Below are positions 21,144 through 61,736 of a DNA stretch of 61,736 nucleotides, piece after piece. Positions within the stretch are counted from its first letter, which is position 1, and every line of letters starts with the position of its first letter. Position numbers and translations under genes: made by a program. The DNA lies in IMG/VR virus record IMGVR_UViG_2974716774_000001, positions 1-61,736 of that record; one strand, given 5' to 3'. Under the pieces are notes generated by a model, which worked only from the letters and a program-made list of their open reading frames with translations, was not told the origin of the DNA and made no database searches. The DNA comes from Jacunavirus JC01 (taxonomy: Duplodnaviria > Heunggongvirae > Uroviricota > Caudoviricetes > Casjensviridae).

Positions 21144-21382
21144 TCAACTACTACGATGGAATGCGGGAGCAGGTCAGTCTGCTCCTTTCCGAAGGCCACC
21201 CACACGCCCGGCGCTACCCACTGGCGACGCTGTGGCTGGAAGCACAAATCGTAATGCGCCGTCATAACCAAAGATTTGTCACCGAATCCCTGCTGATGCA
21301 GGGCTGTATCGGAACGATAATGAATGGGAAGAAAGGCTCTAAGCATTATCAGGACATGATAAGGAAACTTAGCGATGGCTAA
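20688..21382 (+). CDS. Tail assembly chaperone frameshift product (gpGT-like, predicted -1 frameshift near 21134-21140)
   Basis: The -1 frame is open from the slippery run GGGAAAAAA through 21382 and ends just inside the tape measure gene. Confidence 0.45.
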
Positions 21383-24300
21383 CAATTCATCCCGTGACGT
21401 CGAGCTTAATATCCGGGCGAGAGACTACAGCCAGAAAACGCTGAAGCAGGTAACAGATGCCATCAGCGACATGGCCAAAGCCCAGGATGCCCAGCGCCTT
21501 GCTGCCGAGCGCGGCGAAGTCACCGCCAAAGAGCTGGAGGCGAGCTACCGCAAGCTGGAGAGCGCCGGTCAGGCGCTGCTTAAGCTCAACTCACTGGTTG
21601 AAGTGTATAAGCGACAGACGGCCGCGCTGGAAGCCCAGCAGGTCAAGCTGGAGCAGACCGTCGAGAAGCAGAAGGAGCTGCAGGCCGCGTATGACGGCGC
21701 CGAGAAAGTAACGAAGCGTCAGGAGGCAGCACTGGCCCGCGCTAACCGCGCCGTGGAGAAAGCCACGCAAGGCCTGAGCGACCAGCAGGCTCGCGTATCC
21801 CGTGCGGCCGCGGAGCTGGACAAATACGGCATCTCCACCAACGAGCTGGCCCGGAGCCAGCAGACCATCGTGGCCAACGTCGGGCGCGTTAACGCGGTGC
21901 TGGAGCGCCAGGACAACATTATCCAGCGCGTGCCTGAGGCAGTGAGGAAATACAATCAGGCGTGGGATGAGGCGATCGCGACAAACAACCGTCTCGATAC
22001 GGCGCGCCTGGAAAAATATAACCGCGCGTGGGATGAGGCGATCGCCATCAACAACCGCATGGACGCCGCCGCCAAGCTGACGCAGCAGCGCCTCGAAGAG
22101 CAGGCTTACGCGATCGATAAGGTTATCACAGGCCTGCGGCGCCAGGCGGATGAGGCCATCGCAGCATCGCGCGGCTACCAGACTCTCGGCCGTGTGGTGG
22201 CAGCGACGAACCTGAGCACCGGCGGCCGTCTGGCCACTGACCTGCAGGCCATCGTTACGCCAGCGCAGGCGGCGCGTTCTACTCTGGGCGGGCTGGAGAA
22301 ACAGGTCGACTCGCTCTCCCGGGAAATTGAGGCGGGTGGGAAAAACATCGAGGGCGCAGCCCAGAAGCTGAAAGACCTGCAGGCCGCGCAGCAGGCGGCA
22401 ATCGGCATGGCCCGTCTTATTGACCAGTTCCGGGCACAGACGACTGCCGTGCGTACCGCGCGTGCGGAGTTTCAGGCAGCACGCGCCGACGTCATGCAGC
22501 TGGCCGAGCGTATGCGTGCCGCACAGGCTGACACCGAGGGTCTGGGTCGTGAGATGCAGGCGGCGCAGCAGCGCCTTAATGCCGCGACGCAGGCACTGCG
22601 CACTACCGGCGCGGCAGCGCGACAGACGCAGGCGGCGCTACGGTCAGCCGGTGTCGACACCCGAACGCTGGGCACTGAATCCGATCGCCTGCGCACTACC
22701 GCACAGCGTACGACGACGGCCGTCGATGGGCTGGCGGGCGCAGTTCGTCGCAGCGGGGAGGCAGCACGCGACGGCGCGAAGGCATTCTCCTTCTTCACGG
22801 ACAGCGGCCGTACCACGCTGTCGGCCACACAGCGCCTCAAAGGTGAGATTCTGGCGCTGACCACGACGTACATTGGCTTCCAGGGCGCTATCAACCTGGC
22901 GGGCGGCGCGGTGGATGCGTTCAAGACCCGGCAGCAGGCGCTCATCAAGATCTCGCAGGTCGTCGGCAAAGACCAGAACCGTCTCAACGCCGAGTGGGAG
23001 TACATGGAGGGTCTGGCCAACCGGCTCGGTGTCAAGATTGAGGACGTGGCCCAGGGATACACCTCATTCGCCGTGGCGGCCAAAGCGACAGGCCTCAGCC
23101 TGCAGCAGACGAAGTACGTGTTCGAGAGCATCACCAAAACCGGCCGCGTGTTCCACCTGTCGGCCGATGACATGCAGGGCGTGTTCCGCGCCATGCAGCA
23201 GATGCTGTCGAAGGGTCAGGTCTATGCGGAAGAGCTTACCGGCCAGCTGGGCGAACGTCTCCCGGCGGCGGTGGCGTTGTTCGCTAAAGGCATGGACATG
23301 ACCACGCAGGAGCTGCTGAAGGCGATGCAGAACGGCGAGATCAGCTCGCAGGCCGTCATCAACTTCGCACGCGCCAACGCCAAAGCTATCGACGCCGAAA
23401 TCGAGACCGCCAGCAAAGGCGTGGATGCGATGGAAGCGCGCGCCCAGAATGCCATGTTTAACTTCAAACTGGCGATGGCGGACTCCGGCTTCATCGAGGC
23501 GTACGTCAGGATGCTGGAGCGCCTGACCGAGTTCCTGAACAGCCCTGACGGTGCAGAGGCCGCGAAGAAATTCGGTGATGCTTTCTCCAAAGCCGCAGAC
23601 GCGATCATCTGGTGCGTTGACAACATCGACATTCTGATTAACGCGCTGACCGTTTTCGCAGGCCTGAAGGCGGTGCAGTATGTCGCGGGTCTCGTGCAGG
23701 GGCTGCGCAAGCTGGCGCCGCTGTTCGCGCAGATCGGCAAAATCGGCGATGGCATCCTGTCGTTCTTCAGCAAATTCGCAGCGCGCCTGGCGACAGGCAC
23801 CGGCGCAGTGAAAGGCCTGGGCATCGCGCTTGGCGGGCTGGTGCGCGCCATACCGTACGTGGGCTGGGCGCTGCTGGCCTATGACATCGGGGCCATCTTC
23901 TATGAGCAGTCGCAGACATTCGCCAAAGCGGTCGACGAGGTTATCCGCGACTTCAAGAACCTCGGCAATCAGCTTATCGCACTGGCGGAGACACCGGTGG
24001 CAGCGCTGCGGGATCTGGCGTATGCCATCGTGCGGCCTATCACCACGCTCTTCTCTACCAGCATCACGGCTATCGCGAACTGGATAGCGGATGTCGTCAG
24101 CCTGATCCCGGGCGTTGGTGAAGACCTGGCCAAGTGGACGCGAGACGTGGCGAAGGAGCTGACCAAGCAAAACCGTGACATGTTCCAGAACGTGTCCGGC
24201 ATCTGGGATGACGTCAATGACAAATGGGCCAAGATGAATGACGACATCACCAAAAAATACAGCCAGACGATGAGCGAGGTCGTTCGTCAGACGCTGGCCG

Positions 24301-25883
24301 CTAAAGCCAAAATGCTGCAGACGGATCTCAGCGCGGCGATGGGCTTCCAGTTCACCGAAGACCCGGGCGGCGGGATCAGCAAGCGTGACCGTGAGGTGCA
24401 GGCGCTGACCAAAGAGTTTGAAAAACTGCAGAAGTCCGCCGACAAAGCGAAGAAGTCGGCCAAAGAAGCACTGATGCGTAAAAACCTGCCGGGCCGCCTG
24501 GCGCTGGTCGACGAAGAGTTCGCACCGCAGCTCGCCAGGGCGAAAGCGCTCGGCGGCGATGAAGGGGCCAAGCTGACCAAACAGCTGCAGGGCATCATCG
24601 CTATCCGTAAGCAGGCCGAGACCGACGAGTACAACGCGTCACAGCGTAGTTCGTCCGGCATCGACAAGCGAGCACGCGCGTTGGAGAACCTGACGCAGAA
24701 ATACAAAGAGCTGAAAGACTCTATCCAGCTCAAAGAGGTGCAGCAGGATCCGACGTCTTCGCTGGCTGACCGCACCGCGGCTGCTGTGCAGAAAGCTAAC
24801 ACCGAGATGGATAAATATATCCGTCAGGCTAATAAGCTCGGTGGCGCGGAAGGCAAAGCACTCTCCGACCAGTTTACTGCCCTGAAGACGGTTAACGAGC
24901 AGTACATCACCCAGAAGATGCAGCTGGAGGAAGTGGAGCGCCTGGAGAACAAGGTCAACAATCTGCTGGCCATCCGTAAGTCGCGGATTGAGGAAATCAA
25001 CGCCAAACGTGAAGCGGGCGTTATCAACGAAGACCAGCAGGTCGCAGGCGTCAATCAGGTCAATCAGGAAACGCAGGGGCCGCTTAATGCCGCTCTGGGC
25101 CAGCTGCAAAGCGCGGGGTCACAGGCGCAAAGCATCATGGGGCCGGAGGCATGGGCGCAGCTCCAGGCGAACATCGCTGCGGCAAAAGCCAGTATGCTTG
25201 ACCTGACAGGTACTTTCACCACGATGGACTCTACCGTCGTTAAAGGTGTTCTCGGCGGCTTTGAAGCGGCGATGGACTCTATCTATGACAGCATGGTACA
25301 GCTCATCCGCGGCACGCAGTCTCTCAGTGACGCGTTTTCGAACCTGGGCGTGGCAGTGGCCAAGTTCTTCGCCGACTTCCTGCGTCAAATCGCAATGGCC
25401 ATCCTTCAGCAGATGGTGCTCAATGCGCTTGCGGGAATGGGAGGCGGTATCGGCGCGGCGGCGCAGGCAGCGGGCGGCGTGGCCAAAGGTGCGGCCAAGC
25501 ACAACGGTGGTATCATCGGCAGCTCGACGACCGGAGGTATGCAGACACGTCAGATGCAGACGTCGTGGTTTGCCAACGCTCCGCGCTTCCACACCGGCGG
25601 GCTGCCCGGCCTGAAGTCAGACGAGGTACCAGCCATTCTGCAGAAAGGCGAGCAGGTGCTGTCCAAAGATGACCCGAACAACATCCTGAACCAGCAGCGG
25701 TCTACGTCAGGCGGTGCTGCGTCGCCGCAGATGAATCGCTTCGTGCTGGTGGACGACCGCACCAAGATCCCCGAGGCCATGAACAGCCAGGAAGGGGAGC
25801 AGGTATTCGTGCAGTTCCTTCAGCGCAACGCCGCGACAGTCCGGCAGATTGCGTCACGTAAAACGAGCGGGAGAAACGGATAA
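21375..25883 (+). CDS. Tail tape measure protein
   Basis: 1502-aa ORF, N-terminal coiled-coil-like Ala/Gln/Arg-rich region, central hydrophobic Gly/Ala-rich region; located after the chaperone pair. Confidence 0.85.
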   Translation: MANNSSRDVELNIRARDYSQKTLKQVTDAISDMAKAQDAQRLAAERGEVTAKELEASYRKLESAGQALLKLNSLVEVYKRQTAALEAQQVKLEQTVEKQKELQAAYDGAEKVTKRQEAALARANRAVEKATQGLSDQQARVSRAAAELDKYGISTNELARSQQTIVANVGRVNAVLERQDNIIQRVPEAVRKYNQAWDEAIATNNRLDTARLEKYNRAWDEAIAINNRMDAAAKLTQQRLEEQAYAIDKVITGLRRQADEAIAASRGYQTLGRVVAATNLSTGGRLATDLQAIVTPAQAARSTLGGLEKQVDSLSREIEAGGKNIEGAAQKLKDLQAAQQAAIGMARLIDQFRAQTTAVRTARAEFQAARADVMQLAERMRAAQADTEGLGREMQAAQQRLNAATQALRTTGAAARQTQAALRSAGVDTRTLGTESDRLRTTAQRTTTAVDGLAGAVRRSGEAARDGAKAFSFFTDSGRTTLSATQRLKGEILALTTTYIGFQGAINLAGGAVDAFKTRQQALIKISQVVGKDQNRLNAEWEYMEGLANRLGVKIEDVAQGYTSFAVAAKATGLSLQQTKYVFESITKTGRVFHLSADDMQGVFRAMQQMLSKGQVYAEELTGQLGERLPAAVALFAKGMDMTTQELLKAMQNGEISSQAVINFARANAKAIDAEIETASKGVDAMEARAQNAMFNFKLAMADSGFIEAYVRMLERLTEFLNSPDGAEAAKKFGDAFSKAADAIIWCVDNIDILINALTVFAGLKAVQYVAGLVQGLRKLAPLFAQIGKIGDGILSFFSKFAARLATGTGAVKGLGIALGGLVRAIPYVGWALLAYDIGAIFYEQSQTFAKAVDEVIRDFKNLGNQLIALAETPVAALRDLAYAIVRPITTLFSTSITAIANWIADVVSLIPGVGEDLAKWTRDVAKELTKQNRDMFQNVSGIWDDVNDKWAKMNDDITKKYSQTMSEVVRQTLAAKAKMLQTDLSAAMGFQFTEDPGGGISKRDREVQALTKEFEKLQKSADKAKKSAKEALMRKNLPGRLALVDEEFAPQLARAKALGGDEGAKLTKQLQGIIAIRKQAETDEYNASQRSSSGIDKRARALENLTQKYKELKDSIQLKEVQQDPTSSLADRTAAAVQKANTEMDKYIRQANKLGGAEGKALSDQFTALKTVNEQYITQKMQLEEVERLENKVNNLLAIRKSRIEEINAKREAGVINEDQQVAGVNQVNQETQGPLNAALGQLQSAGSQAQSIMGPEAWAQLQANIAAAKASMLDLTGTFTTMDSTVVKGVLGGFEAAMDSIYDSMVQLIRGTQSLSDAFSNLGVAVAKFFADFLRQIAMAILQQMVLNALAGMGGGIGAAAQAAGGVAKGAAKHNGGIIGSSTTGGMQTRQMQTSWFANAPRFHTGGLPGLKSDEVPAILQKGEQVLSKDDPNNILNQQRSTSGGAASPQMNRFVLVDDRTKIPEAMNSQEGEQVFVQFLQRNAATVRQIASRKTSGRNG

Positions 25884-27583
25884 TGGCACTGACAGGCCTC
25901 CGTCCACTCAAAGAGACCAACACGCTGGGCACCTCCGCTCAGCGCTTTGGACTACTCAATGGGGCGTACGATATTTTCGTGCAGGACACCTACACCGGCG
26001 GCGACGCTGACCAGAACTACTACGCGGCCAAGTGGCTGCGTCTGGCGGCGGGCACCTACCAGCTGCGCTTCATCGGCGATGACTCGGCGACGTTCAGCCT
26101 GAACGGGATGCAGGTGGCGTCCGGCACCTACGACGGCAGCTGGATCACGCCGGTCGTCGAGACGTTCACGGTTGGCGCGGATGACGTATACCGCTGGGAT
26201 ATCGTGAACCACAACGGCCCGGCCAATTCGCCCGCGTTCGTCTCATACGAGCTGAGCAAGGACGGCGTGATTATTGAGGTGTCTCGCGCGCAGGACTTCA
26301 TCGGCGACCTCGTACCGATCCCGGACAAAGCGCTGGGCCCGAAGCCGCCGTACAATAACGATATCCGTCTGAGCTACCCGATCTTCCTGCCGAAGCCAAA
26401 CTGGAAAGACGGCGTTACCGAGCGACTGGAGTGGAAGACCGATGTGCTGGTGTCCGAGACCGGCGCCGAGCAGCGCCGCAAGCTGCGCCAGTACCCCCGC
26501 CGGTCGCTGGAGGCGAGCTTCACCGGGCAGGGCAATTACGCCGCGCTGATCGACAGCTACCTGTCCGGCGTCGGCTACTCCAACGGCCTGGTGCCGCTGT
26601 GGTGGGATGAGACGCCGATTAGTGGCGACGTGGTGGCGGGCGCGGTAGACATCTTCGGCGACTTCAAGTGGCGCGAGTTTAACGCGAACGACGTCGTGAT
26701 TATCCGCAGGCCGGGCCGCGTCACCGACTATGAGCTGAACATTGTGGCCGAGCGCAGCGACACCAAACTGGTGCTGCTCTACGGCCTGCAGGAAGACACG
26801 CGTGCTGGCACCATCACGCCGGTGCGGGTGGCACAAATCCGCGAGCAGCTCTCCGGCACGATCCTGACCGACCGCGTTAAGCAGTACCAGCTGCGCTTCT
26901 TCACGGTGGAAGCCGCGGACTACCCGGCAGAGTGGACTTTCCCGATTTACGAGCGCACCAACCTGCCGATCCTGACGTGGGAGCCGAACTACCGCGAGTC
27001 GCTCGACCTCAACTACGACCGGCAGATCTACACCTGGGATAACGAGGTGGGCAACCCTTACACCGTTGACCCGGGCGGCACGCTGCAGCTGGGCGAGAAA
27101 ATGGGCTTCACGGTGTTCGGACGCGCGGAAATGCACGGCCTCAAGCGCACGCTGTATAAACTGTCTGGCCGGTGGCGCGAGATTCATGTGCCGTCCGGCA
27201 GCGACGAGTTTACGCTGGCCCGCGACATCAATGACAGCGCTGGCGCACTCGTGGTCTACCGCAGTGGCTATAACCAGTACCGGCTCAGCCAGCAGGCCAC
27301 CCGGCGCGACATTCTCGTCGAGCTGTATGACGGGCGCGTCCTGCCTAACACCATCATCTCCAGCCGCGTCGTGGGGGATGAAGAGTGGCTATTTCTGCAG
27401 GAGACGCTGCCGCCTGTTCCCAAAGACCAGGTGCGTCGTATAAGCTACATGCCGAGAAGCCGACTCGATATCGACGCCATCGAAATCAGCAGGCTTACCG
27501 ACGCGGACGGCGCGGCCCAGGTGGCACTGACTTTTAAAGCCATCACTGAAAGAAGGAACGCGCCGCCGATAACTTTCCAGTGA
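25883..27583 (+). CDS. Tail tip protein (distal tail / tip assembly, putative)
   Basis: 566-aa ORF immediately after the tape measure gene (TAATG overlap). Confidence 0.5.
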   Translation: MALTGLRPLKETNTLGTSAQRFGLLNGAYDIFVQDTYTGGDADQNYYAAKWLRLAAGTYQLRFIGDDSATFSLNGMQVASGTYDGSWITPVVETFTVGADDVYRWDIVNHNGPANSPAFVSYELSKDGVIIEVSRAQDFIGDLVPIPDKALGPKPPYNNDIRLSYPIFLPKPNWKDGVTERLEWKTDVLVSETGAEQRRKLRQYPRRSLEASFTGQGNYAALIDSYLSGVGYSNGLVPLWWDETPISGDVVAGAVDIFGDFKWREFNANDVVIIRRPGRVTDYELNIVAERSDTKLVLLYGLQEDTRAGTITPVRVAQIREQLSGTILTDRVKQYQLRFFTVEAADYPAEWTFPIYERTNLPILTWEPNYRESLDLNYDRQIYTWDNEVGNPYTVDPGGTLQLGEKMGFTVFGRAEMHGLKRTLYKLSGRWREIHVPSGSDEFTLARDINDSAGALVVYRSGYNQYRLSQQATRRDILVELYDGRVLPNTIISSRVVGDEEWLFLQETLPPVPKDQVRRISYMPRSRLDIDAIEISRLTDADGAAQVALTFKAITERRNAPPITFQ

Positions 27584-27590
27584 GGCGTGT

Positions 27591-28409
27591 ATGAGCTATA
27601 ACGACAGAGAGTCATCCAACTACGACGGCGAACCCATATACCTGTATGAGTTTCGCCTCAACGATCAATACTGGCGCTACACCTCCGCCGCGACGCGCAT
27701 GTCGCTCGGGGGTCAGGTGTGGGAGCCAATGGGGGTCTCCGACGACGGGATAAAACAGACGGGTGACACATCGGTGGACGCGCTAAACATAACGATGCCC
27801 ATCTCGTCTCCCGTCGTCGGACTTTTCATCGGTACGCCGCCTATCAGCCCAATCTACATCACACTGCGCCGGTTCCACATGGGTGACGATGATGCGGCCG
27901 TCTGCTACGTCGGCGAGGTGATGGAGAGTAACCAGAACAGCCCCGTGTCCGCGGTACTCACCTGCAACACCCTTTCCGCATCTCTCGAACGAAACGGCCT
28001 GCGCCTGTCCTACACGCGCGGCTGCCCGTATTCCCTGTATGACGTCTGCTGCAAGGTGGACAAAGAGCAGTTCCGCTACAACGGCACCATATCCACTGTG
28101 GGCGGCAGCCAGATAACGGTGCCGGGCATCGAGACGTTCGGCGACCGCTGGTTTGCTGGTGGCTATATTGAGTGGGTGGATCCGAAGCGCGGCGTCGACC
28201 GTCGGGCCATTGAGCAGCATACCGGAAACAAGCTGACCATTTTCGGCACGGTCTCCGGCCTGGCCGGTGGGATGATTATCAAAATCTACCCGGGCTGTCC
28301 GCGCACCACGCAGGCCTGCAAAACCAAGTTTAACAACCTGGCCAACTACGGCGGGATCCCGTCGATGCCTGACCGCTCCCCGTTCGACGGCAATCCTATT
28401 TTCAACTAA
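27591..28409 (+). CDS. Tail tip protein with C-terminal Cys cluster (hub-like, putative)
   Basis: 272-aa ORF with RBS GAGG; cysteines in RGCPYSLYDVCC and PGCPRTTQAC suggest a metal or Fe-S site. Confidence 0.5.
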   Translation: MSYNDRESSNYDGEPIYLYEFRLNDQYWRYTSAATRMSLGGQVWEPMGVSDDGIKQTGDTSVDALNITMPISSPVVGLFIGTPPISPIYITLRRFHMGDDDAAVCYVGEVMESNQNSPVSAVLTCNTLSASLERNGLRLSYTRGCPYSLYDVCCKVDKEQFRYNGTISTVGGSQITVPGIETFGDRWFAGGYIEWVDPKRGVDRRAIEQHTGNKLTIFGTVSGLAGGMIIKIYPGCPRTTQACKTKFNNLANYGGIPSMPDRSPFDGNPIFN

Positions 28410-28419
28410 GGAGTACACC

Positions 28420-28650
28420 ATGTGGTTCGCACTGGCGGCACTGGTCATATCCATCATCCTGCAGGTCGCGCTGGCGCCGAAACCGACGCAGCCAAAACCG
28501 GCCACCTTCTCCGACTTCGATATCCCGCAGGCGGAAGAGGGTACACCGCAGGCCGTATGCTTCGGCGAATGCTGGAGTGGTGACTGGCAGGTACTTGCGT
28601 ACGGCAATTTCCGTACGAAGAAAGTCAAAGCTAAGCAGGCTAAAAAATGA
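28420..28650 (+). CDS. Small membrane protein (tail-associated, putative)
   Basis: 76-aa ORF with RBS AAGGAG; N-terminal hydrophobic helix WFALAALVISIILQVALA. Confidence 0.4.
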   Translation: MWFALAALVISIILQVALAPKPTQPKPATFSDFDIPQAEEGTPQAVCFGECWSGDWQVLAYGNFRTKKVKAKQAKK

Positions 28651-28868
28651 CAGATGAACCGCGTATCTACATGCGCCATGCGCGCGCTATGAACATCTGC
28701 GGCCCGGGCGTGGAGCGCATCGCCGAGCGCATGGGGGTCAACCTGATGGACTTCCTGGAGAACGGGTATCCGTGCGCACTGGCCGAGAAGTCCGCTAACC
28801 CGCTGCTGCGCAAGGCCGCGGCAATGGCACGCGAAGAGTGGGAGGCCGCACATGGGAAAGGCCAGTAA
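28647..28868 (+). CDS. Hypothetical protein
   Basis: 73-aa ORF overlapping neighbours by 4 and 17 nt in the tail tip operon. Confidence 0.35.
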   Translation: MTDEPRIYMRHARAMNICGPGVERIAERMGVNLMDFLENGYPCALAEKSANPLLRKAAAMAREEWEAAHGKGQ

Positions 28869-31800
28869 GGTTACAGTCGGCTACAAATATTATATGGGCC
28901 TGCACATGTCGATCTGCCGCGGGCCGGTCGACGAGCTGTGCGAGATTACCGTGGGCGATCGGCAGGCCTGGCAGGGCTCTGTCACCGGCAACACGCAATT
29001 CAGCATCAACAAAAAGAACCTTTTCGGCGGCACCAAAGCGGAAGGTGGCATCGACGGCACGCTGGACGTGATGATGGGCGGCGCTACCCAAACTATGTCG
29101 AGCAAGCTGCGCGCGATGCTGCAGGGCGATCAGCCGGAGTTTCGCGGCCTGATGACGACCTTCTTCGACGGCATGGTCTGCGCCATGTCGCCGTACCCGA
29201 AGGCCTGGAAGTTCCGCGTTCGTCGCATCCTGTCCGGCTGGGATGGCCCGGTGTGGTATCCGCAGAAGGCAACCATTAACCTGACCGGCTATTACGACGA
29301 TGGCTCCAGTCGCCAGATTAAGGCGATGAACCCGGTTCACATCATTTACGAAGCGCTGACTAACCGCGCGTGGGGGCTGGGCCGCGACCGCTCACTCTTC
29401 CTCGATGACGCGTGGCGTAAAGCTGCCGACGACATCTACGACGAAGGCTTCGGTCTGTGTATCCGCTGGGGGCGGCAGGACACGCTGATGTCATTCGTGC
29501 AGACGATTATCGACCACATCGGCTGCGCGGTATACGTGGACAAGTTCACCGGTAAATTCAAGATAAAGCTCATCCGCAACGACTATGACGCGGATTCTCT
29601 GCCCATAGTGGATATGGACTCCGGCCTGCTGTCTATCGACGAGGCGACCAACGCGTCGACGTATAACCTCATCAACGAAGTGATCGTCAACGCGCACAAC
29701 CCTGTCACCAACAAAGACTTTCAGGCCCGTCAGCACAACCTGGCGCTCATCCAGACGCAGGGCGCGCTGAACAGTGACACCCGCGACTACCCGGGCATCC
29801 CGACGCCGGAGCTGGCCATCCGCATCGCCCAGCGTGACCTGAAGGCGGCCTCGACCAACGTCCGGCGCTTCACCGTGACCGCCGACCGTCGGTTGTGGCG
29901 CCTGCAGCCCGGCGATGTCTTCAAGCTGCGTGACCCGCAAAGCCGCGGTATCGAGACTGTGGTCGTGCGCGTTGGCAAGGTGGAAGAGACTAACCAGACT
30001 GACGGCAGTATCAAAATCACTGCAGTGCAGGACGTCTTTGGCGTTGAGCTGAATACCTTCGCTGACGTTCAGCCGCCATCCCACGTCGAGCCGACTTTCG
30101 ACCCGCAGCTGGCCCGTCGTCTGGTTTACGAGTACACCTACGCCGAGCTGGCCCGCCTGCTGCCCACCGGTGAGTTCGAGGCTATCAAACCGGCGGAAGG
30201 CTTTGTCCACGCCCATGCGGAGAAGCCGACGGCCATGTCTGCCGGTGCTGACCTCGCGGTGCGCCCGGAGGGCCAGGCTAACTTCGTCGTTAACGGCACC
30301 ACCGACTTCACGCCACTGGCCGAGCTGCAGAACCAGATTGGCTACCTCGACACGCAGCTGCAGTATTACCGCGAGATTGACTTCGACGATGACGAAGAGG
30401 TGTATGTCGGCATGTCGCTGCTGATCGGCGATGGCCAGAAGAACGAAATAGTGCGTCTCGATGCGCTTGACCGCACCACGAAGACGATGACTATCGCGCG
30501 TGGCTGCTGGGATACTATCCCGCAGCGGCATTTCGGCGGCGCGCTTATCTGGGCTATCGAGGATAACGGCGGCACCGACGCGACGAAGTACCTGTCCGGC
30601 GAGACCGTCGACGTCAAGATCCTCCCGTTCACCCTGCGCGGCGGCAGCTACCCTATCGACGAAGCGCCGATTGACAGCGTGCTCATGCGCCATCGCTTCT
30701 TCCGGCCGTACGCGCCCGGGCTGGTGGAGGTCGAGACAATCGCCCGTGGCAGCAAAGCGCCGTGGTACGTCTCTTTCGACCTGCGGGCTGACGTCGGCTC
30801 AAACGAGGTGCCGGACTTCGCGCTCATCACCTGGGCTCACCGCGATCGCCCGGTGCAGCAGGATAAGCTGATTGACCACATGCAGACCAGCATCGGGCCG
30901 GAACCGGGCACGACGTATCGCCTGCGTGTCTTCAACGCCACTGGCGCGCTGGTACGCACCGAAACCGGCATCACCGGCACGCAGTTCGCCTATACCTACC
31001 AGATGGCCGCTGATGACACGCAGGTGGAGCTGGAAGCCACAGAGTCGACCTTCGGCACCATCTTCCTCGATGCGCAGCGTGACGGCGTGGATTCGTGGAT
31101 GTACTACACGCTGACGTTCACCGTTCACAAGAAGCCGCCGCAAAACGGCGAGGTGGCGCTGCTCTCGATGCAGACGACCGCCGATGACACCGACATGACC
31201 TCCAACCCGGATAACGACCTCTCCGGCGCGCAGGTGTCGAGTATGCAGATGAACGCGACGCAGGATGACTCGGATATCGCGACAGGCGACGACAACACCG
31301 GCGGCCAGGTGGCGCTGATGAGCGAGAACGCCACGCAGACCACGAAGATCCTGCCGACCATCGACTTCTACCTGTACGAAGCGCCCTACCTGACGCTGGC
31401 GCGGGAAGGCCGCGATTTGACGCATTCCCAGATGCTCGGCTTCGTTGCGCGACCGTCTGACCGTGCTACCGATGGCTACGACTTCTGTGACCGCCTGCAG
31501 GGCGAAGAGGCCTGGCACAATAACGGCGCCGCGCCGTGGACTCCGTGGGGCGTGCTGAAGGGCTTCATGGCGCAGCTGACCAACGAGTTTGAAGTCGACC
31601 TGACCAGCGATACTGATGGCGTGCCGATCGGCTCCGTCCAGCAGGGCGACGTGCTGCTCATCGACAACGAGCTGATGGTCGTGCAGTCTGTCGACGGAAA
31701 ACGCTTCACCGTTGGCCGCGGTGCCGTGGATACCGTACCGGCCATCCACTACGCGAAAGTCGTGGTATGGCTGTTTGACCGCGCGCACGCTGCTGCCGAC

Positions 31801-32670
31801 AGGCTTTACGGCGACAACGACGTGGCCAACGCCGTCATCAGGCCACACAGCTTCGCCGAGGCTATCCGCCCTGAGGATATGCCGTTTAAGCAGCTGCAGA
31901 TGCAGTACCGGCCAATCCGGCCATACCCGCCGGGCATGTTGCTGTTTAACGGCCAGCACTGGTTCAAGCGCATCAACGCACTGGCAGACGAGAACTACGA
32001 GAAGCCGCAGGGCAAGCCGGTCATCGTGACCTGGGCGCACCGTAACCGCATCTGGCAGGACGACGAAGCGTACGACCACTACGCCACGGGCATCCCGCCG
32101 GAGCCGGGTGTGGAGTACCGTATCTGGATTGGGTACCGGTACATCGAGAATCGCCAGGAAGTGAAGGTCACTCTCGATACGCTGGTGACGTCGGATGCCG
32201 GTATCACGTTCACCAAAGAGATGGTAGAGCGCTGGGGCGAGAAAGCTGGCCGCTTCCTACAGTCTCCCGGCTTTGTCGGCGTAGAGGTGGCAGTCAACGC
32301 AGTGCGGGATGGCGTGTTTAACTGGCAGGGCTACGGCGCGCAGATGCTGCTGCCGTCTTACCCGCTGAGCCCGGGCGAGAAGCCTGGCGGCGGCACGGTT
32401 CCGCCAGACCCGGAATACCCGCAGCCCGGCGACCCGACGCCTAACCCGAACGACCCGGATCCAAACCCGAACCCGGGCGACGGCAATGGCGACACCGACC
32501 CGCTGCCAGACCCGGGCAACCCAGACCCGAATCCGGATCCGGAAGTGCCGGACACTGACCCACCGGCGCCAGAACCGGAGCCGGAGCCAGACCCGGAGAA
32601 CGTATTCGGCTGGTCGAACAACTGGGATCACGGCTGGGCATCGAAACTGCCTGACCAGAACGGAGAATAA
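28852..32670 (+). CDS. Tail tip central fibre / host specificity protein (lambda gpJ-like)
   Basis: 1272-aa ORF; internal region ELAIRIAQRDL...RRLWRLQPGDVF resembles the gpJ pattern; C-terminal Pro/Asp/Asn-rich low-complexity linker. Confidence 0.65.
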   Translation: MGKASKVTVGYKYYMGLHMSICRGPVDELCEITVGDRQAWQGSVTGNTQFSINKKNLFGGTKAEGGIDGTLDVMMGGATQTMSSKLRAMLQGDQPEFRGLMTTFFDGMVCAMSPYPKAWKFRVRRILSGWDGPVWYPQKATINLTGYYDDGSSRQIKAMNPVHIIYEALTNRAWGLGRDRSLFLDDAWRKAADDIYDEGFGLCIRWGRQDTLMSFVQTIIDHIGCAVYVDKFTGKFKIKLIRNDYDADSLPIVDMDSGLLSIDEATNASTYNLINEVIVNAHNPVTNKDFQARQHNLALIQTQGALNSDTRDYPGIPTPELAIRIAQRDLKAASTNVRRFTVTADRRLWRLQPGDVFKLRDPQSRGIETVVVRVGKVEETNQTDGSIKITAVQDVFGVELNTFADVQPPSHVEPTFDPQLARRLVYEYTYAELARLLPTGEFEAIKPAEGFVHAHAEKPTAMSAGADLAVRPEGQANFVVNGTTDFTPLAELQNQIGYLDTQLQYYREIDFDDDEEVYVGMSLLIGDGQKNEIVRLDALDRTTKTMTIARGCWDTIPQRHFGGALIWAIEDNGGTDATKYLSGETVDVKILPFTLRGGSYPIDEAPIDSVLMRHRFFRPYAPGLVEVETIARGSKAPWYVSFDLRADVGSNEVPDFALITWAHRDRPVQQDKLIDHMQTSIGPEPGTTYRLRVFNATGALVRTETGITGTQFAYTYQMAADDTQVELEATESTFGTIFLDAQRDGVDSWMYYTLTFTVHKKPPQNGEVALLSMQTTADDTDMTSNPDNDLSGAQVSSMQMNATQDDSDIATGDDNTGGQVALMSENATQTTKILPTIDFYLYEAPYLTLAREGRDLTHSQMLGFVARPSDRATDGYDFCDRLQGEEAWHNNGAAPWTPWGVLKGFMAQLTNEFEVDLTSDTDGVPIGSVQQGDVLLIDNELMVVQSVDGKRFTVGRGAVDTVPAIHYAKVVVWLFDRAHAAADRLYGDNDVANAVIRPHSFAEAIRPEDMPFKQLQMQYRPIRPYPPGMLLFNGQHWFKRINALADENYEKPQGKPVIVTWAHRNRIWQDDEAYDHYATGIPPEPGVEYRIWIGYRYIENRQEVKVTLDTLVTSDAGITFTKEMVERWGEKAGRFLQSPGFVGVEVAVNAVRDGVFNWQGYGAQMLLPSYPLSPGEKPGGGTVPPDPEYPQPGDPTPNPNDPDPNPNPGDGNGDTDPLPDPGNPDPNPDPEVPDTDPPAPEPEPEPDPENVFGWSNNWDHGWASKLPDQNGE

Positions 32671-61724: not shown

Positions 61725-61736
61725 GGTGCGCAGAGC
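61725..61736. repeat. Terminal 12-bp direct repeat GGTGCGCAGAGC, right copy (putative cohesive end)
   Basis: Exact copy of bases 1-12 at the last 12 positions of the window. Confidence 0.6.

Follow-up and report, generated by a model that had tools for sequence, protein, structure and literature searches.

In the tail tips of RcGTA, a gene transfer agent (GTA), and of roseophage R4C, an iron–sulphur (Fe-S) cluster was seen in cryo-electron microscopy maps of the hub (PMC7296036, PMC10276861). The 'ion-binding' part of RcGTA g13 consists of segments 143–167 and 250–263, whose four conserved cysteines are the ligands of the cluster resolved in the map (PMC7296036), and the ion-binding segments of the R4C hub span residues 142–161 and 244–266 (PMC10276861). 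In lambda, the cluster ligands of gpL are Cys173, Cys182, Cys205 and Cys212 (PMC10721106), and papers citing Tam et al. 2013 describe the gpL cluster as an oxygen-sensitive [4Fe-4S]2+ on which both the assembly and the activity of the tail depend (PMC10721106, PMC10276861). Here we characterize a related protein of 272 amino acids from Cronobacter phage JC01 (Jacunavirus JC01), encoded at 27591..28409 on the + strand of a 61,736-nucleotide stretch of DNA (IMG/VR record IMGVR_UViG_2974716774_000001; hereafter the window). JC01 is a siphovirus with 71.5–73.6% identity to Chivirus phages, and its annotation lists 'four tail assembly proteins' without further functional detail (PMC9759504). We conclude that JC01 has a siphophage tail tip of the lambda/GTA type, that this protein is its small hub subunit (baseplate hub 1, equivalent to gpL), and that four invariant cysteines in the protein most likely hold a [4Fe-4S] cluster, which would act as a structural staple.

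Assignment to the baseplate hub family

Exact translation of the open reading frame (ORF) gave 272 residues and placed cysteines in both of the strings quoted by the first-pass annotation of the sequence, RGCPYSLYDVCC (residues 143–154) and PGCPRTTQAC (residues 234–243). The upstream gene stops 7 nt before the hub 1 gene, and a GAGG Shine-Dalgarno sequence lies 6 nt before the ATG. The protein matched PF09931 ('baseplate hub protein, N-terminal attachment domain'; residues 24–157) with 34.2 bits against a curated cut-off of 26, PF09356 (Phage_BR0599; residues 186–261) with 64.2 bits against a curated cut-off of 22.9, and the NCBIfam model TIGR02218, 'phage/gene transfer agent baseplate hub protein', with 96.3 bits against a cut-off of 80.5. 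Its best match among solved structures was Chi gp27, 'baseplate hub 1 protein' (8vjh_D; E=5.5e-121, 64% identity over the full length); JBD30 gp50 (8rk3_g) was matched at E=1.3e-47. The R4C hub (8gtc_P) and RcGTA g13 (6tba_7A) were also matched in the single-sequence search, and the family profile lifted them to E=2.9e-14 and E=1.5e-11, respectively. The protein has the fold of the solved members of the TIGR02218/PF09931+PF09356 family (formerly DUF2163/BR0599). As in that family, its gene lies between a distal tail gene and a gene for a gpJ-like or megatron hub, and its cysteines fall in two separate segments that flank an inserted barrel, forming the ion-binding domain.

The domain layout was drawn from these matches and from an AlphaFold2 monomer model built from 51 homologs, in which two beta domains are well defined and the mean predicted local distance difference test score (pLDDT) is 77. 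All the parts that follow are on the + strand. The N-terminal attachment or HDI domain (residues 1–142; 27591..28016), a tail-tube-like beta-sandwich supported by PF09931, the model and structural matches, has strands with pLDDT 80–90; its structural matches are Sf11 BH1P, gpL, T1 gp36 and the N-terminus of T5 pb3. The first half of the metal-binding segment (residues 143–160; 28017..28070) contains C145 (28023–28025) and C154 (28050–28052). It is followed by the inserted small beta-barrel (residues 161–232; 28071..28286), which has a pLDDT of about 90 and was delimited with the aid of the RcGTA and R4C domain limits; the homologous barrel is named the 'oligosaccharide-binding' domain in both (PMC7296036, PMC10276861). 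The second half of the metal-binding segment (residues 233–257; 28287..28361) contains C236 (28296–28298) and C243 (28317–28319), as well as a conserved F-N-N-x-x-N-Y-G-G motif. The C-terminal 'clip' tail (residues 258–272; 28362..28406) has a pLDDT below 50, and its JBD30 equivalent is an extended C-terminus buried between hub subunits (PMC11445458). Low confidence in this tail and in the linker (residues 130–144, or 130–150 with its cysteine-bearing end) is expected of a protein that wraps around a partner.

Chi gp27 (PDB 8VJH chain D) is also 272 residues long and has the equivalent four cysteines; in Chi, the flanking genes for the distal tail protein, the 76-residue 'tail assembly protein 1' and hub 2 are arranged as in JC01, and the cos ends are alike, whereas the hosts differ (Salmonella for Chi, Cronobacter for JC01). 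JC01 hub 1 differs from Chi gp27 in an extra cysteine, C153, beside the ligand position C154. JBD30 gp50, the upper baseplate protein (PDB 8RK3), is 34% identical to it over the full length and is likewise a two-domain protein with a hub-wrapping linker and a buried C-terminus (PMC11445458); the pilus-binding fibres and receptor-binding tripods of the JBD30 tip are not evident in JC01. The RcGTA g13 and R4C hubs (PDB 6TBA/6TEH and 8GTC) belong to the same family with aligned cysteines at 18–19% identity, and share with JC01 the architecture of attachment domain, split ion-binding domain, inserted barrel and clip. The proposal of the first-pass annotation that this is a hub-like component akin to gpL and the GTA hubs is upheld by the TIGR02218 match, the orthology to Chi gp27 and the alignment of the cysteines with published ligands.

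A full HMMER scan returned 11,287 family members at E<=1e-3 among 1.84 billion 50%-identity cluster representatives, and the family is present in 790 of 50,697 isolated-phage records. Some members (P0257, P0260, P0276, P0312, P0364 and others) have 380–506 residues and match the profile in two stretches, with an extra domain inserted near profile positions 180–216, within the barrel domain. The feature is already well documented in this very large family, and JC01 hub 1 is a straightforward ortholog of a solved protein. The value of the assignment is mostly a correction of annotation: the public record of the identical protein reads 'tail assembly protein [Cronobacter phage JC01]', and labels on the JC01 gene and many relatives include 'tail assembly protein', 'hypothetical protein' and even 'FAD/FMN-containing dehydrogenase' (PMC9759504), although the gene product is a hub subunit of the virion that probably carries an Fe-S site.

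Conservation of the four cysteines and relation to gpL

Hub 1 has seven cysteines, at positions 105, 125, 145, 153, 154, 236 and 243, a content of 2.6% compared with 0.79% in the long + strand ORFs of the JC01 genome (a crude ORF set). Four of them form the arrangement C145-x8-C154-x81-C236-x6-C243, and the pattern C-x8-C…C-x6-C is unique to hub 1 among those ORFs. All four are invariant in the 108 full-length homologs that we aligned (28–82% identity), where they make up four of the ten invariant columns. Outside the site, cysteine is kept at C153 in 14%, at C105 in 35% and at C125 in 79% of the same homologs. Of the five cysteines in the two quoted strings, four constitute the site, and C153 (codon 28047–28049, +), the first cysteine of the 'CC' doublet in the first half of the metal-binding segment, is a variable residue that does not belong to it. 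C125 (27963–27965) lies on the final strand of the N-terminal domain, also outside the site, and is a cysteine in 73% of distant representatives.

The distant set consisted of the best 150 of the 11,287 family representatives, which are mutually less than 50% identical. All four cysteines were aligned in 142 of these, and the count rose to 147 after inspection: among the other eight, four have C-x8-C in place of C-x6-C and one has a misaligned insertion. Non-conservation of the cysteines, which had been named as the observation that would argue against the site, was thus not found, either in the close homologs or in the distant representatives. The three true exceptions (P0265, P0315 and P0250) all lack the third cysteine. 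It is replaced by Asp in two of them (PGDDRT…C and AGDDKA…C) and by Gly, with a CC doublet at the fourth position, in the remaining one; these representatives may be variants with alternative ligation or without a cluster.

The four cysteines coincide with the published cluster or metal ligands of RcGTA g13, the R4C hub and JBD30 gp50. Their counterparts are C150, C159, C250 and C257 in RcGTA g13 (residues counted through the HMMER alignment), and C157, C244 and C251 are aligned in R4C. In JBD30 gp50, Cys147, Cys156, Cys238 and Cys245 are aligned with identical spacing; these residues coordinate a putative metal, and the authors liken the site to the Fe-S clusters of RcGTA and gpL (PMC11445458). 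The counterparts in Chi gp27 are C146, C155, C237 and C244. The gpL ligands follow the pattern C-x8-C-x22-C-x6-C, so the spacing within each pair (x8 and x6) is the same as in hub 1, and the difference between the pairs, 81 residues against 22, is explained by the inserted beta-barrel (about residues 161–232). The stretch after the gpL ligands, CKFRNNVGNFGG, also resembles CKTKFNNLANYGG in JC01 hub 1. The protein identity, the fold, the gene neighbourhood and the conservation and alignment of the four cysteines are all direct observations.

Sequence comparison by itself did not connect hub 1 to gpL. PF05100 (Phage_tail_L) was absent even at E<=10 in the Pfam search of hub 1. When the family profile was searched against the PDB with hmmsearch, gpL (8iyk_L) appeared at E=0.25, the match consisting of two weak stretches in collinear order, and hhalign gave a probability of 24%, covering the N-terminus only, against gpL alone and of 37%, covering 59 N-terminal columns only, against a 25-sequence gpL alignment. 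Membership in the gpL sequence family (PF05100/TIGR01600) was rejected, as there was no significant sequence match. By contrast, the structural features of the gpL family are present: hub 1 has the HDI fold, the tail-tip position and, in its C-terminal domain, the C-x8-C…C-x6-C ligand spacing. The relation to gpL is clear from structure, in agreement with the ligand pattern and the position in the particle, although the sequence match is not significant. We therefore file the protein in the TIGR02218/BR0599 hub family and regard it as analogous to gpL in structure and function, and probably as its distant homologue. Among the closest known systems, T1 gp36 and the F7 pyocin THP are grouped with gpL. 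Lambda gpL (PF05100/TIGR01600; PDB 8IYK) differs in lacking the inserted beta-barrel, and lambda also encodes gpK.

Probable nature and role of the cofactor

By analogy with solved relatives, whose ring architecture is known (PMC10721106, PMC12874032), three hub 1 N-terminal domains would alternate with three HDII domains of hub 2 to form the last pseudo-hexameric ring beneath the distal tail protein. This ring would be built by the tube-like domain at the N-terminus, and the C-terminal half would consist of a small barrel set between two short segments, which C145, C154, C236 and C243 would tie together, most likely around a [4Fe-4S] cluster. The cluster would serve as a structural or assembly staple that folds a small 'iron-binding' domain packed on the outside of hub 2, and this domain may move as one rigid unit with hub 2 during opening of the tip. 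Such a movement is described for lambda and the F7 pyocin, where HDII, HDIII, HDII-ins and this domain rotate outward together as a rigid body on tip opening (PMC11101478, PMC12874032). We infer the [4Fe-4S] nature of the cofactor and its structural role; since the gpL cluster is described as needed for assembly and activity, a structural or assembly staple is the most likely role.

Several points weigh against this interpretation. A cofactor is not detectable from sequence, so Fe-S occupancy in JC01 is a prediction. JBD30 gp50, the second-closest solved relative, was modelled with a 'putative metal ion' and not with an explicit cluster (PMC11445458). Even in lambda the function of the cluster is unsettled: it sits in a domain on the outer surface, the role of which 'remains to be characterized' (PMC10721106). 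Also, hub 1 proteins without the metal domain exist, namely Sf11 gp16 (156 residues), Jersey gp30 and the single-chain T5 and LSH1 hubs (PMC12724387, PMC13243795). Sf11 gp16, Jersey gp30, T5 pb3 and LSH1 gp25 have in common with JC01 hub 1 the N-terminal HDI domain and the role in the pseudo-hexameric ring, but the cysteine-bearing C-terminal domain is entirely absent from them (PMC12724387, PMC13243795). The metal domain is therefore an accessory module that is not universally required.

The main alternative to a [4Fe-4S] cluster is a tetrahedral Cys4 site with the same stapling role that binds one metal ion, Zn2+ or Fe, which we regard as unlikely. Many virion proteins have structural zinc bound by four cysteines. 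The alternative is favoured by JBD30 gp50, which has identical cysteine spacing at 34% identity and was described with 'a putative metal ion', yet the same authors write of a 'metal-sulphur cluster' (PMC11445458). The homologous or analogous sites of RcGTA, R4C, lambda and T1 were modelled as Fe-S from strong extra density, and the F7 pyocin is described as carrying an Fe-S cluster in the equivalent domain (PMC7296036, PMC10276861, PMC10721106, PMC11945409, PMC12874032). For gpL relatives, a [4Fe-4S]2+ defined by biochemistry is reported in papers that cite Tam et al. 2013, and the x8/x6 ligand spacing differs from the CxxC knuckle typical of zinc.

A related idea is that the Cys4 site of the Chi/JBD30 branch is more than a passive staple: it could hold a mononuclear metal, as modelled in JBD30, in place of the cofactor present in the GTA and lambda branches, or an oxygen-labile cluster whose loss alters the stability or opening of the tip. 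We consider this quite a long shot. If it were true, virion infectivity would be sensitive to redox or oxygen conditions, and the Cys3-to-Asp variants P0265 and P0315 would represent tuned versions of the site.

Two structural disulfides without a cofactor, for example C145–C154 and C236–C243, would suit an extracellular virion that meets oxidising conditions, and disulfides stabilise other phage structural proteins such as the JBD30 minor capsid protein (PMC11445458). Given the oxygen sensitivity of the gpL cluster reported in work cited by PMC10721106, a cluster-free oxidised form is also conceivable. This arrangement is nonetheless very improbable: extra non-protein density lies among the four sulfurs in all solved relatives, folding takes place in the reducing cytoplasm, and the Asp found at the third position in two representatives, although able to ligate a metal or cluster, is incapable of disulfide formation. 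That the motifs merely reflect composition without a joint function, as the variability of C105, C125 and C153 (three of the seven cysteines) might suggest, has next to no probability, since the four are invariant in 108 homologs down to 28% identity, all are kept in 98% of the 150 distant representatives, and the identical pattern recurs in families recognisable by fold alone; the conservation analysis excludes a chance origin.

We thus retain the [4Fe-4S] staple as the most likely state of JC01 hub 1. Because the four-cysteine site is almost perfectly conserved in a large family, the role of an Fe-S cluster on the outer face of the tail tip is a broad question, and the JC01 gene brings no new angle on the purpose of such clusters.

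Neighbouring tail genes and genome ends

The window begins (1–12) and ends (61725–61736) with the same 12-bp sequence, GGTGCGCAGAGC (chance expectation 0.01). Ends of this type were described as Chi-like cohesive ends in the JC01 paper (PMC9759504). The presence of GGTGCGCAGAGC at both termini therefore indicates that the window is the complete linear genome of Cronobacter phage JC01. A search for tRNA genes in the window was negative. In a megablast search of a phage collection that does not include JC01, the DNA of the tail-tip region matched only one Chi-like Salmonella phage, with 74% identity.

Upstream of hub 1 on the + strand, a gene at 21375..25883 encodes a protein of 1502 residues that we assign as the tape measure protein from its size, position and composition; JC01 has been reported to encode such a protein (PMC9759504), and its C-terminus is expected inside the tip. 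It is followed by the gene for the distal tail protein (25883..27583, +; 566 residues), which matched 8vjh_B, 'Distal tail protein', at E=1.1e-171. Downstream are the gene for a gpI-like plug or insertion protein of 76 residues (28420..28650, +; 8vjh_U, 'tail assembly protein 1', E=2.2e-33) and that for the gpJ-like hub 2 or central tip protein of 1272 residues (28852..32670, +; 8vjh_A, E=0; Pfam Phage-tail_3). Hub 2 also matched JBD30 gp53, 'Tip attachment protein J domain', at E=7.9e-133, and by analogy it would be the binding partner of hub 1. Thus 8VJH, the Chi tail-tip structure, has a matching chain for each of the distal tail, 76-residue and gpJ-like neighbours. The prediction of a lambda/GTA-type tip, which had been made from the cysteine cluster together with the gpJ-like neighbour, is correct.

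The order tape measure protein, distal tail protein, hub 1, plug and hub 2 corresponds to the lambda order M-L-I-J without gpK. No gpK (NlpC/P60-MPN) gene was found between the equivalents of L and I, and only the ORFs of 76 and 73 residues lie between hub 1 and hub 2. The GTA module has the g14 peptidase between the hub and the megatron, whereas JC01 has no peptidase there. Also, the GTA plug ('iris') helix is fused to the megatron, whereas the JC01 plug is a separate protein of 76 residues. In PHROG 1101, the 76-residue segment is fused ahead of a gpJ-like protein.

The 76-residue protein had no Pfam or NCBIfam match. It has a hydrophobic N-terminus and aligns with residues 138–203 of lambda gpI, including the hydrophobic segment (pairwise BLASTP, E=0.003), and this part of gpI is the plug inside the lambda tip (PMC10721106). 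Judged from these sequence matches, the predicted plug is a virion component; its name in PHROGs, 'tail assembly chaperone', is probably a misnomer. The ORF of 73 residues (phrog_1196; 28647–28868, +) overlaps the previous gene by an ATGA start/stop and the gpJ-like gene by 17 nt. It occupies the position of gpK in lambda without a peptidase signature, and had no Pfam, NCBIfam or PDB match. Near the C-terminus of hub 2, the 74 residues 1175–1248 (32374–32598, +) are of low complexity, with PDPNPNP-like repeats, 38% Pro and an abundance of Asp, Gly and Asn; a short Trp-rich tail follows.
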